Source: Enterobacteria phage ATK47. Taken from it: a DNA stretch of 64,000 bases. Both the position numbers and the translations under genes were made by a program. Below are positions 7,136 to 57,173 of this stretch, piece by piece; the stretch's first letter is position 1, and the number at the start of each line of letters is the position of its first letter. Where the stretch lies: sequence record NC_055708.1. One strand, given 5' to 3'. The notes under the pieces are model-generated. The model was not told the origin of the DNA. It saw nothing but the letters and a program-made list of their open reading frames with translations, and made no database searches.

Positions 7136-7479
7136 CCAAAATGTTAGCTTTAATAGTTGGCTTGGTTTCATTTAACGCTCTTGCTAATACTACATATACT
7201 GATGTAACGGAGTATACAAACAGAACGGCGTCTGATTATTGTGGTAAAAGTCAAGAGTGTAAAGTAGATTTTTCACAAAAATTGTTATATGCGTATAAAG
7301 ACGGAGAAAAAGATGGGGCGTCTAGTAGGTTCAAGGCGTCTACCTTAATTAAAAGATACTATAAAAAATGGCAAATATTAGAATGCTCGGTGGCGGAACC
7401 TAAAGATAAGGCAGCATGCAATTCTATGGTGGACCGCCTAGTTGACTCTTATACTAGAGGACTTGCAGCAAGTGATTAA
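7132..7479 (+). CDS. Hypothetical secreted protein, 115 aa
   Basis: N-terminal signal-like segment; ATGA overlap. Confidence 0.45.
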   Translation: MTKMLALIVGLVSFNALANTTYTDVTEYTNRTASDYCGKSQECKVDFSQKLLYAYKDGEKDGASSRFKASTLIKRYYKKWQILECSVAEPKDKAACNSMVDRLVDSYTRGLAASD

Positions 7480-7939
7480 AAACTATATCAAGGGCGATAT
7501 TGTCGCCCTGTTTTCTAAAGGTAATAATATTGCTCATGGGTGTAATTGTTTTCATACAATGGGCGCCGGTGTGGCAGGACAATTAGCAAAGGCTTATCCA
7601 AAAATTCTGGAAGCCGATAAACTTCAAACCGAATTCGGAGACGAGTCTAAACTCGGGACTTATTCGGTTTATGAAAAATATTTTAAGACCCATAAAGCTT
7701 ATTGCTTTAATCTTTATACGCAGTTTGAGCCGGGACCTAATTTTGAGTACTCTGCTTTAATGAATTGTATAATAGAATTAAATGAATTTGGAAAGAATAA
7801 GATAACAAAGCCTGTAATTTATATGCCAAGAATTGGTGCAGGTATTGGTGGTGGAAACTGGGATGTCATCGAAGAGATTTTAGATACGTATTCCACTAAA
7901 CTAGAAATTGTGATTGTTGATTGGGAACCGTTATTATGA
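7472..7939 (+). CDS. Macro-domain protein (ADP-ribose binding/hydrolase fold)
   Basis: Motifs HGCNCFHTMGAGVAGQLAKAYP and IGAGIGGGNW resemble macro-domain signature regions; start uncertain (GTG 7472 overlapping the upstream stop, or TTG 7442). Confidence 0.6.
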   Translation: MIKNYIKGDIVALFSKGNNIAHGCNCFHTMGAGVAGQLAKAYPKILEADKLQTEFGDESKLGTYSVYEKYFKTHKAYCFNLYTQFEPGPNFEYSALMNCIIELNEFGKNKITKPVIYMPRIGAGIGGGNWDVIEEILDTYSTKLEIVIVDWEPLL

Positions 7940-53838: not shown

Positions 53839-54302
53839 TGGATGCTATGTTATTTAAAATGTATTTGCTTGAAGCCAAGTCATTTAAACATATACCAGTA
53901 GAAGATAAGACTCCACTAGAAATAGCTATTCTCATTAACAAAAGTCTAAATAATCCGCAATATATCGTAGAAGAATTCTGTAAATTGCAGATTCCTAAAG
54001 GTTACAAAATTCGTGTAGAACGAGTTGGAGCTATTACTCATTCTAAAAATTCTCCGTTTAGTCTTGAAGAAGGCATAAAGGATTTAGGGTACGAATCTAC
54101 AGAAAATGCTGTTTATTTGAATCCTGAAAAGCGTTTAGACTTGTTTGAAAAGCGAGACCATACGTATTTTGCCAAAAAATACTTTATTACATCATTAGCA
54201 GATTTAATCCATTTGCAACGAGCTATTTGGAAATTTTTTAAGACAAAAGGTGTAGCACTAGAAACATTTTCTGAACCGGCTAGTTTTTATCTCGGTGAAT
54301 AA
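53838..54302 (+). CDS. Hypothetical protein, 154 aa
   Basis: ORF. Confidence 0.4.
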   Translation: MDAMLFKMYLLEAKSFKHIPVEDKTPLEIAILINKSLNNPQYIVEEFCKLQIPKGYKIRVERVGAITHSKNSPFSLEEGIKDLGYESTENAVYLNPEKRLDLFEKRDHTYFAKKYFITSLADLIHLQRAIWKFFKTKGVALETFSEPASFYLGE

Positions 54303-54303
54303 T

Positions 54304-54483
54304 ATGGACTTGATGAGTATGTTTGATGAGCCTGAAGTTGAGGCTCCTAAAGTTCATCGTAGTGAACTTGTTGATGAACTAGATAGTATTATACAACGAC
54401 ACGGCTTTAGTTTACCTGTCGAAGCCCTGAAAGACCTTGCCTCTTATTATGACGACCCACCACCATGGAGTCCTTGGAAATGA
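54304..54483 (+). CDS. Hypothetical small acidic protein
   Basis: ORF. Confidence 0.3.
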   Translation: MDLMSMFDEPEVEAPKVHRSELVDELDSIIQRHGFSLPVEALKDLASYYDDPPPWSPWK

Positions 54484-54656
54484 AAGAGAAATTTAAAGAG
54501 AAATTCTTACTAGAAATCAAGGAAAAAGACTTTGAGACATGGTATCGAATGGTGAAAGGGTTGACATTGCTTTTTAAAGCGTCCTTATTCATGTTAGGAC
54601 AACCTGGCCCAGATGGTCCTTTAGTAGGAAAGCTTAAAAATAGTTTACAAAAGTAG
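54480..54656 (+). CDS. Hypothetical small protein
   Basis: ORF. Confidence 0.3.
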   Translation: MKEKFKEKFLLEIKEKDFETWYRMVKGLTLLFKASLFMLGQPGPDGPLVGKLKNSLQK

Positions 54657-54684
54657 TTTACATTCCCTCCTCTCGTGTTATGAT
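54656..54684 (+). promoter_or_regulatory. Early promoter (tandem GTTTAC hexamers, TATGAT)
   Basis: Two GTTTAC copies 12 bp apart. Confidence 0.45.
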
Positions 54685-54711
54685 AGGCTTATCTTTAAAT
54701 GGAGGTCTATC

Positions 54712-55293
54712 ATGACATGTCAATCTGAACTTCAAGAACGCGAATACCTAACAAATCTGATTGATAGCAAATTCACCCGCCAAGAACAAAACATTCTCTG
54801 GGCTTGCACCGATTCTAAGGAAGACCCAGATTTCCACTATGAATTAGACCGTCTTGTTCGTAAGCATATGACTTCTACAGTACCAGTAGAACTCTACCGT
54901 GGTGTAACTCCAGAAGAAGTAGAACGTCTTTCCCTTCTTTCTGTTGGATGCCATTGGTCTCCTGGACGAGTAACATCGTTCACAACTGATTTCGGTACAG
55001 CTCGTCAATTCTCTGGGAGATGGGAATATCAGACGTACACTATTCTTAGTCTCAGGAATGCTCCATTCATTTTTGATTACTACCAAAACATGGTTAACAT
55101 TGTACTTGCCGGAAAGAATCCTAAGCATGTTATGGAAGAAACGCGTGTTGACGTCCTAGATATGATTGAATCTGAACAAGAATACATGGTCTCAGGTATC
55201 TCTAGATTTGAGATTGTGGAAATTGAAGACTTAGAATATGACCCTTTATCTCGACTATACAAAATCATTCATTTAAAAATGTTGAATTTTTAG
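54712..55293 (+). CDS. modB: ADP-ribosyltransferase, ModB-like
   Basis: YRG (Arg), S-x-T region and E-Q-E motif; paralog of next gene; position soc-side of dda. Confidence 0.65.
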   Translation: MTCQSELQEREYLTNLIDSKFTRQEQNILWACTDSKEDPDFHYELDRLVRKHMTSTVPVELYRGVTPEEVERLSLLSVGCHWSPGRVTSFTTDFGTARQFSGRWEYQTYTILSLRNAPFIFDYYQNMVNIVLAGKNPKHVMEETRVDVLDMIESEQEYMVSGISRFEIVEIEDLEYDPLSRLYKIIHLKMLNF

Positions 55294-55322
55294 TGTACAA
55301 ACTCTACCGACGATGATACTAT
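55294..55322 (+). promoter_or_regulatory. Early promoter (GTGTAC, TACTAT)
   Basis: 17-bp spacing. Confidence 0.5.
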
Positions 55323-55350
55323 ACCTTTATCAACCACAGGAGAAACCTAA

Positions 55351-55959
55351 ATGTTTATGCCGTATAATGAATGTGAAATTGAGGAAATGGTTCGCCGTGC
55401 CCAATGCCCTGAATATCAAGATGAATTGCAGTACGAAATTGATAGTCAATTCAACGATAATGAACAAAGCATCCTTTGGCAGTGTATGGAAAACAAGCCA
55501 GACTGTATTCAACAGGAGTTAAGTTCAATCGTTCGTAGAAATTGGACGTCTTCAGTTCCTGAGACAATGTATCGTGGAATCTCTAAGAAAACTATGGCCA
55601 CACTCGATGATAAAGGCATTGGTAGTATTATTAAATTTGACAGAGTAATGAGCTTTAGTCCGGTGTTTGGTGTAGCACGTAACTTCGCTTCATATAATTT
55701 TTATGGAACATTTAATATGTTCTGCATCAAAGATGCACCATTTGCTTTCAACTTCCGTGAACATATGCTTAACATGATTCTGGCTGCGCCATCTTGTGAG
55801 TTCAATGGAGCTTTCCCTGAAGCGACAAGACGGTCTAATGCTAGACTTATATCTGACGAATGTGAATTTATGCTCCCTATAGGGACTACACTGCGTGTAG
55901 ATTCTATTATTCAAGATGGACGTTATACAATCTGGAATCTGTCTATTGTCGGTTACTGA
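55351..55959 (+). CDS. modA: ADP-ribosyltransferase, ModA-like
   Basis: YRG, MSFSP, E-C-E motifs; paralog of upstream gene. Confidence 0.65.
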   Translation: MFMPYNECEIEEMVRRAQCPEYQDELQYEIDSQFNDNEQSILWQCMENKPDCIQQELSSIVRRNWTSSVPETMYRGISKKTMATLDDKGIGSIIKFDRVMSFSPVFGVARNFASYNFYGTFNMFCIKDAPFAFNFREHMLNMILAAPSCEFNGAFPEATRRSNARLISDECEFMLPIGTTLRVDSIIQDGRYTIWNLSIVGY

Positions 55960-56033: not shown

Positions 56034-56062
56034 GTGTACACTACCTGAGGGCATGATATTAT
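56034..56062 (+). promoter_or_regulatory. Early promoter (GTGTAC, TATTAT)
   Basis: 17-bp spacing. Confidence 0.5.
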
Positions 56063-56112: not shown

Positions 56113-56859
56113 ATGTTATCAAATAATAAAATTAACAAAATCAATCGTCGTCTTGACCACACTAGAGCTTCTGCGAAGAGACGCTCTAAGGATTTTAACT
56201 TAGACTTTAATTACCTTAAAAACGTTCTTGATCAAAAGGTCTGCGCTTACTCAGGTGAATCTTTCAATAACTCTGTTGAAGGTGAGAAATTATCCTTAGA
56301 ACGTTTTAATAACGATATAGGCTACATTAAAGGTAATGTTATCCCAGTTAAGAAAAAATATAACACGGCTCGTTCTGATTTAACATTAGAAGAACTTATT
56401 GAGAAACGTGATGCCATTGCAAGACGTATCGCTAATCCTTCTGTCCGTAAAGTAGAGAAACTTAATCTCGACGAGAAGAAATGGGCCCAAATCAAAAAGG
56501 TTTATGATACTATTTTAAAAATCCGAGCAAAACGTGAAAATCGTGTTAAGCATATGGCGAACATGATGAAAAATCAACCTTTATCTAACGAATCTAAACT
56601 TAGAATTGTTGCTTTGAAAGCACGCATTAATGGCTCACACCAAGCAGAAGGCCATGAACTTACTAAACTCAACGTTCTTCTTAAAGGCTCTGACTGGAAA
56701 ACTAAAACTAAATTAACTGATGCTGAATCGCTTTTCGATACATATGATAAAGTTATCCAAGGTCTGCGACGTTTTGAAAAGATTGGTTTCATTGGTAAAT
56801 TAAAATTGAAACGTGGCCTACCACTTAGCGCATCATTATTCCAACTGATTAAAGGTTAA
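56113..56859 (+). CDS. Hypothetical basic protein (sits where T4 srd would be)
   Basis: 248 aa ORF between modA-like and dda.1-like. Confidence 0.4.
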   Translation: MLSNNKINKINRRLDHTRASAKRRSKDFNLDFNYLKNVLDQKVCAYSGESFNNSVEGEKLSLERFNNDIGYIKGNVIPVKKKYNTARSDLTLEELIEKRDAIARRIANPSVRKVEKLNLDEKKWAQIKKVYDTILKIRAKRENRVKHMANMMKNQPLSNESKLRIVALKARINGSHQAEGHELTKLNVLLKGSDWKTKTKLTDAESLFDTYDKVIQGLRRFEKIGFIGKLKLKRGLPLSASLFQLIKG

Positions 56860-56861
56860 TT

Positions 56862-57173
56862 ATGGTTTATGTATATGCAATAGTTTATCGAGATATGGAA
56901 GGATTTACTGTCCCGGTTCCACTTGATGAGCATCGTCCTGCAGTATTTTTTAGAAAGGATATTGCAGATAAAGTTTTCGATACTTTGAAAACACAGTATA
57001 AAACAGATTTAAAAATGGGAGTTCTAAGAATGGTCGAAACTCCGCGTAAGTTCTGGTTTAATAAGCTTGAAATGAAACACGTTAAACTAGATGCGGAGAC
57101 GCAAAGATTGTATCAACGAATTCTGGACACAGGCCGTATTGTTAGTATTCCAATTGCAGGGACTTTACGATGA
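56862..57173 (+). CDS. Hypothetical protein (Dda.1 position)
   Basis: ORF overlapping dda start. Confidence 0.4.
   Translation: MVYVYAIVYRDMEGFTVPVPLDEHRPAVFFRKDIADKVFDTLKTQYKTDLKMGVLRMVETPRKFWFNKLEMKHVKLDAETQRLYQRILDTGRIVSIPIAGTLR

Follow-up and report, generated by a model that had tools for sequence, protein, structure and literature searches.

In the window analysed here, the whole stretch of 64,000 nucleotides from Enterobacteria phage ATK47, two adjacent open reading frames code for proteins which resemble ModB and ModA of phage T4. The question raised by this locus is threefold: whether both frames encode complete ADP-ribosyltransferases, how far the T4 names, and the substrates attached to them, can be carried over to the pair, and whether a macro-domain gene located elsewhere in the window has any part in the modification which the pair is predicted to carry out.

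The gene pair and its relatives

The positions of the two genes, of their ribosome-binding and promoter sites and of the other features discussed have been collected in Table 1. The 2.9-kb stretch around the pair shows 100% DNA identity to phage ATK48 (KT184310.1), an RB69-like Mosigvirus in which each coordinate is that of the window plus 34,524; another 137 records, with an identity of 95-99%, come without exception from Escherichia, Shigella or Salmonella phages. The two proteins are 100% identical to ANZ51279 and ANZ51280 of ATK48, which are labelled 'modB: NAD--protein ADP-ribosyltransferase' (upstream) and 'RNA polymerase ADP-ribosylase' (downstream), while in RB69, where the labels are modB and modA, the counterparts are 98% (ModB, AAP75921) and 94% (ModA, AAP75920) identical and are found in the same position and order, with the same three early promoters. 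The gene order 56-soc-mrh-modA.2-modB-modA-srd-dda.1-dda-dexA is that of T4, and the order of the genes flanking the mod pair is also that of RB69; by means of Pfam and PHROGs, the neighbours were recognised as gp56 dCTPase, Mrh, ModA.2, Srd, Dda.1 (Phage_Y01A), the Dda helicase and DexA. The modB/modA pair is, in fact, already known: its annotation dates back to the genome record of RB69 (AY303349), and its T4 counterparts have been characterised biochemically.

Judged by their sequences, the upstream and downstream proteins are true paralogs, with 35% identity over 147 residues in BLASTP (E 9e-29) and 32% in the 22-sequence alignment described below. When the ORFs in the six reading frames of the window were searched with a family HMM, no third Mod paralog was found, the next best match having an E-value of 0.18.

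Table 1. Features of the window discussed in the text, in order of position.
Feature	Position	Strand	Basis or description
Macro-domain ORF (T4 Tk.4 ortholog)	7472-7939	+	155 aa; Pfam Macro 28.3 bits vs cutoff 22, 1.9e-6
ModA.2 homologue	54295-54483	+	PHROG 1647
Small ORF 5' of the modB promoter	54465-54656	+	94% identical to RB69ORF020c; PHROG 5790 at 4.6e-22
GTTTACA, first copy	54643-54649	+	
GTTTACA, second copy	54656-54662	+	13 nt from the first copy
Predicted modB-position promoter (T4-type early)	54657-54684	+	(G)TTTACA-16-TATGAT, extended -10 TG; scanner, 10/12
RBS GGAGG of the upstream gene	54701-54705	+	6 nt 5' of ATG
Upstream ADP-ribosyltransferase gene (modB position)	54712-55293	+	ORF, 193 aa plus stop
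Predicted modA-position promoter (early)	55294-55322	+	TGTACA-17-TACTAT, TG at 55314-55315; sequence reading, 8/12
RBS AGGAG of the downstream gene	55338-55342	+	8 nt 5' of ATG
Downstream ADP-ribosyltransferase gene (modA position)	55351-55959	+	ORF, 202 aa plus stop
Predicted srd promoter	56035-56062	+	TGTACA-16-TATTAT; scanner
Srd family match	56113-56859	+	
Dda.1 homologue	56862-57173	+	Pfam Phage_Y01A 2.7e-24

Catalytic residues and family membership

The first-pass annotation had read the two genes as tandem paralogous ADP-ribosyltransferases of the ModB/ModA kind, on the grounds of a shared N-terminal Q-x-I-L-W-x-C motif and of YRG, Ser and E-x-E (EQE / ECE) elements, and coordinates, paralogy, T4 homology, synteny, catalytic residues and predicted fold all agree with that reading. 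The N-terminal motif is present as EQNILWAC in the upstream protein and as EQSILWQC in the downstream one, and every catalytic element is found in both, the Arg motif as Y62-R63-G64 and Y74-R75-G76, the Ser motif as V-T-S89-F-T and V-M-S101-F-S, and the E-x-E motif as E155-Q-E157 and E170-C-E172, respectively. Alignments of 6, 22, 23 and 33 homologues were compared, that of 22 sequences consisting of Mod proteins from 15 phages, which represent about ten genera, and those of 23 and 33 sequences being drawn from a large protein collection. Since the R, the G, the S and both glutamates do not vary in any of them, these residues are to be regarded as family-defining and not as chance occurrences. 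This includes the two glutamates of E-x-E, one of the points at which the earlier reading had been declared open to refutation.

The alignment with T4 ModA and ModB, which had been proposed as a check, brought the catalytic residues into register with significant homology, R63 of the upstream and R75 of the downstream protein being aligned with R73 of T4 ModB (all other T4 residue numbers are those of the alignment made here). In T4, both ModA and ModB carry R-S-EXE, and the R73A/G74A form of ModB is catalytically inactive, the burst size of the T4 mutant being reduced (PMC10468400). Moreover, both proteins matched PHROG 832, 'RNA polymerase ADP-ribosylase' (2.7e-37 for the upstream and 5e-38 for the downstream protein), and tblastn against T4-type phages gave E-values of 7e-20 to 1e-25 for Mod proteins. 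By tblastn, 996 and 1,077 phage records were found to contain homologues of the two Mod proteins, and almost all of these records are of T4-like phages with Enterobacterales hosts. Profile scans of Pfam-A and NCBIfam returned no match for either Mod protein; the Mod homologues bear the precomputed label PF26816.1. By homology, by catalytic residues, by location in the early gene cluster and by the fold of the predicted models, both proteins are members of the T4-type Mod family.

Within the R-S-E clade, the E-x-E form of the last motif, as opposed to Q-x-E, predicts arginine as the acceptor. Arginine is the acceptor predicted here from the E-x-E form, in agreement with the fact that the T4 Mod marks are arginine N-glycosides which can be removed by ARH1 (PMC10468400), and the sequences predict NAD-dependent arginine ADP-ribosylation of host proteins by both enzymes.

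Predicted fold

The PDB contains no Mod structure, and a sequence search of it with both Mod proteins retrieved no relative; the fold was therefore examined on predicted models. The matches to nucleophosmin (E 0.06) and trigger factor (E 1) in that search were rejected as weak and spurious. The AlphaFold models reached a pLDDT of 89.7 for the upstream and 94.2 for the downstream protein. When they were compared with the PDB by Foldseek, the best 50 matches for each model were all R-S-E ADP-ribosyltransferases (E about 1e-5, prob 1.00), including Certhrax, CDTa, iota toxin Ia, C3 exoenzyme, HopU1, VIP2, Vis and the toxin chains 6drh/6dre, while comparison of the upstream model with the predicted phage ModB/ModA structures of a viral model set gave TM values of 0.8-0.92. 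On the basis of these models, both proteins are confidently predicted to adopt the ADP-ribosyltransferase fold. The bacterial R-S-E toxins (C3, iota Ia, CDTa, Certhrax, HopU1) resemble the Mod pair in the catalytic fold and in the R / S-T-S / E-x-E logic, but the sequence identity is 10-17% and the TM value 0.4-0.55; in addition, the Mod proteins have an N-terminal helical bundle of their own and are intracellular early proteins of a phage, whereas the bacterial toxins are secreted.

Predicted early promoters

The promoter scanner returned 23 consensus matches, where 23.4 were expected by chance; as such matches do no better than chance, the promoter sites were judged by their conservation. 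At the modB position, with a predicted transcription start near 54691, GTTTAC and TGnTATnAT are kept in ATK48, RB69, IME08, VR5, VR26 and T4, while the flanking bases diverge. The modA-position site, which begins at the final base of the modB stop codon and has its predicted transcription start near 55329, was omitted by the scanner because its agreement with the consensus falls below the threshold. Among six phages of Mosigvirus, Dhakavirus and Gaprivervirus, its GTnTAC and G-n-TA..AT elements are invariant, whereas the spacer diverges.

In RB69, early promoters have been predicted at Pe:13466, Pe:12829 and Pe:12088 (Nolan et al. 2006; PMC1524935, Additional File 3), and these correspond to the sites in front of modB, modA and srd, respectively. 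Since the hexamers are conserved and the published RB69 site coincides with the one found here, the downstream gene very probably has an early promoter of its own, as the first-pass annotation had claimed. The situation is different in T4: there, a 4-nt overlap between modB and modA leaves no room for a separate modA promoter, and this site is absent. At the level of sequence, the sites point to early expression of the pair from T4-type early promoters recognised by sigma-70.

Near the modB promoter, GTTTACA occurs twice, and a 12-nt stretch with the first copy is missing in RB69, which indicates a short duplication in ATK48; save for this, no substantive difference between ATK48 and RB69 was found at the locus.

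Proposed function of the pair

The two ORFs are very likely to be the early genes modB and modA of a Mosigvirus, each coding for an arginine-specific mono-ADP-ribosyltransferase of the R-S-ExE clade of roughly 200 aa. According to this model, each gene would be transcribed soon after infection, from its own T4-type early promoter, by the unmodified sigma-70 RNA polymerase of the host. NAD+ would be bound through the YRG arginine and the serine of S-F-T/S, and the glutamates of E-x-E would serve for the transfer of ADP-ribose to arginine side chains of host proteins. By analogy with T4, Arg265 of the RNA polymerase alpha subunit would be the most likely target of the downstream enzyme, and S1, EF-Tu and trigger factor those of the upstream enzyme, which, by the same analogy, might also attach NAD-capped RNA (RNAylation).

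How far the ModA and ModB names carry over

The likeness to the T4 proteins on which such substrate assignments are built is not the same at all levels. T4 ModA (NP_049635) is encoded in the same slot, directly 5' of srd, carries the same R-S-ExE and has 200 aa against 202 aa here; its target for ADP-ribosylation is Arg265 in the alpha subunits of RNA polymerase. Nevertheless, the downstream protein is only 30% identical to it (75.5 bits in BLASTP) and is closer to T4 ModB (105 bits), and the T4 modA gene lacks the promoter predicted for the downstream gene. T4 ModB (NP_049636) is likewise encoded in the same slot, after modA.2 and behind the same conserved early promoter, and it shares with the upstream protein both R-S-ExE and an N-terminal E-Q-x-x-L-W-x-C helix; among its targets, both for ADP-ribosylation and for RNAylation, is ribosomal protein S1. 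The identity of the upstream protein to it, however, is 31% in the 22-sequence alignment and 38% over the 160 residues aligned by BLASTP, whereas the upstream protein is 45-46% identical to the single-copy Mods found in Ursula and STP4-a, phages of other genera. The corresponding BLASTP scores are 92 bits for T4 ModB, 93.6 for its own paralog and 161-163 for the single-copy Mods.

The slot is occupied by one Mod gene in many genera, among them Karamvirus, Winklervirus, Gelderlandvirus, Jiaodavirus, Marfavirus and Krischvirus, whereas Tequatrovirus, Mosigvirus, Dhakavirus and Gaprivervirus carry a pair. At 167 aa, the Krischvirus Mod is shorter, the N-terminal helices being absent from it. In a neighbour-joining tree with 200 bootstraps, the downstream copies of Mosigvirus, Dhakavirus and Gaprivervirus form one clade (100%), which T4 ModA joins at only 32%. 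The best BLASTP matches of T4 ModA are also downstream copies (76-86 bits), and it gave no BLASTP match to upstream copies of the RB69/JS98 type. Because T4 ModA prefers the downstream clade, the simplest reading is that the downstream gene and T4 modA are true orthologs, evolving fast; with a node of only 32% bootstrap, substrate assignments are, for their part, transferred by position. The upstream copies, on the other hand, fall in three separate groups of the tree: the one described here clusters with those of Dhakavirus (100%), and the copies of Gaprivervirus make up the third group. Those of VR26 and MN01 are placed with single-copy genes of Klebsiella phages (68%). The branching looked equally star-like in clade-specific HMM scores and in an all-against-all BLASTP comparison.

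In this context, an alternative has to be weighed, possible but tentative, namely that the upstream 'ModB' is not the equivalent of T4 ModB but an active enzyme which belongs to another lineage of Mod proteins and has targets of its own. The upstream slot would then have been occupied or reshaped in different ways in Tequatrovirus, in Mosigvirus together with Dhakavirus, and in Gaprivervirus, and neither S1 modification nor RNAylation should be assumed for the upstream protein. The scores and identities given above speak for it, as the protein is about as distant from T4 ModB (31%) as from its own paralog (32%), and so does the scatter of the upstream copies, with its Klebsiella-phage affinity, beside the single clade of the downstream ones. 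In addition, T4 ModB is the only one of the three enzymes that RNAylates efficiently, for a reason that is not understood (PMC10468400). Against it, gene position, promoter and catalytic motif are as in T4 modB, and the deep nodes of the tree have bootstraps of 1-51%, those at T4 ModB of 1-16%. With nodes as weak as these, an old duplication with fast divergence and repeated duplication or replacement fit the tree equally well.

The assignment of the pair to modB and modA is preferred, with a restriction as to what the names imply. In the comparisons made, the upstream copy and T4 ModB did not form a group separate from the other Mods, and only position and promoter are common to the two in particular. 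'ModB' is here a positional name, since the upstream copy resembles its paralog no less than it resembles T4 ModB, and, as far as the sequences go, the names ModB and ModA appear to be mainly positional. One could go further and suppose that the T-even 'ModB' slot is occupied by Mod proteins of three or more lineages that are not equivalent (the T4, RB69/JS98 and VR26 types), each with host targets of its own. This broader proposal seems rather unlikely; if true, the upstream enzyme of RB69 and ATK48 might modify proteins other than those modified by T4 ModB, or might be an anti-defence factor instead of an S1 RNAylase. According to a 2025 preprint, T4 Alt plays a part in evading Mokosh type I, and a ModA ortholog is labelled in the screen concerned.

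The value of these results lies in a caution on annotation transfer: outside Tequatrovirus, the ModA and ModB labels rest on gene position, and for this reason claims on RNA polymerase alpha, S1 and RNAylation in RB69-like phages need direct tests. As a discovery, the pair carries little weight, the genes having long been annotated and their T4 counterparts biochemically characterised, and the residual points, the targets of the RB69-type enzymes and the history of the duplication, are modest.

The macro-domain gene and the question of a catalytically dead paralog

The first-pass annotation had added that the window encodes both writers and, in the macro-domain gene, a possible reader or eraser of ADP-ribosylation. 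This is literally true, the macro domain being genuine: besides the Pfam match (28.3 bits), the ORF matches PHROG 335, the PDB macrodomain chains 2fg1 and 2afc (6.5e-11) and the DarG macrodomain (NCBIfam, 8.2e-8). What finds no support is the implied erasing of the Mod marks. That the Mod enzymes and the macro-domain protein form a writer/eraser pair, in which the latter reverses or limits ADP-ribosylation by the former, might be thought of because macrodomains as a class strip ADP-ribose from macromolecules (PMC9503650). However, the gene, some 47 kb away from modB/modA, is situated between vs and tk.3 in the vs-tk cluster (in the ATK48 GenBank record it is unannotated, in the vs-tk.3 gap), and its product is 85% identical to T4 Tk.4. 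Homologues of the macro-domain protein were found in 2,798 phage records, from many unrelated groups including Pseudomonas, Vibrio and Felixounavirus phages, against about 1,000 records, nearly all of Enterobacterales phages, for Mod, so that the Mod and macrodomain genes were found to be neither adjacent nor co-distributed. Furthermore, the Mod marks are arginine-linked, and ADP-ribose in this linkage is not among the known substrates of macrodomains. According to a 2025 preprint, tk.4 is the one gene that T4 needs for growth on cells expressing DarTG2, to which its knockout sensitises the phage; it has been renamed adfM, and the removal of ADP-ribose from DNA has been proposed as the anti-DarTG2 activity of AdfM (10.1101/2025.11.20.689424). 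Considering the anti-DarTG2 role of Tk.4/AdfM, the distant locus, the wide distribution and the arginine linkage of the Mod marks, a role of this protein as their eraser is unlikely, and the writer/eraser pair is highly improbable. The macro-domain gene probably belongs to a different conflict, that of counter-defence against DNA ADP-ribosylation by DarT.

Finally, that one of the paralogs could be a catalytically dead pseudo-enzyme retained for binding or regulation, as might be suspected of copies which have strongly diverged (32-35% identity to each other), activity being sometimes lost in duplicated enzymes, is hardly credible in view of the invariance of R, S and both Glu in the two copies and in all 22 sequences, of the intact state of both copies across about 150 Mosigvirus genomes (90-100% protein identity) and of the confident models with complete ADP-ribosyltransferase folds.

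Annotation of the neighbouring genes

In ATK48 and many of its relatives, the ModA.2 homologue is labelled 'molybdenum ABC transporter periplasmic molybdenum-binding protein', which looks like an error of name propagation from the unrelated modA of E. coli. The small ORF that follows it ends right before the modB promoter and is without annotation in ATK48, and the Dda.1 homologue is also missing from the annotation of that phage, in the gap between srd and dda. As regards Srd, its N-terminal ~100-150 residues match PHROG endonuclease families (HNH endonuclease, endonuclease VII) at 1e-10 to 8e-18, and one relative carries the annotation 'HNH endonuclease'.
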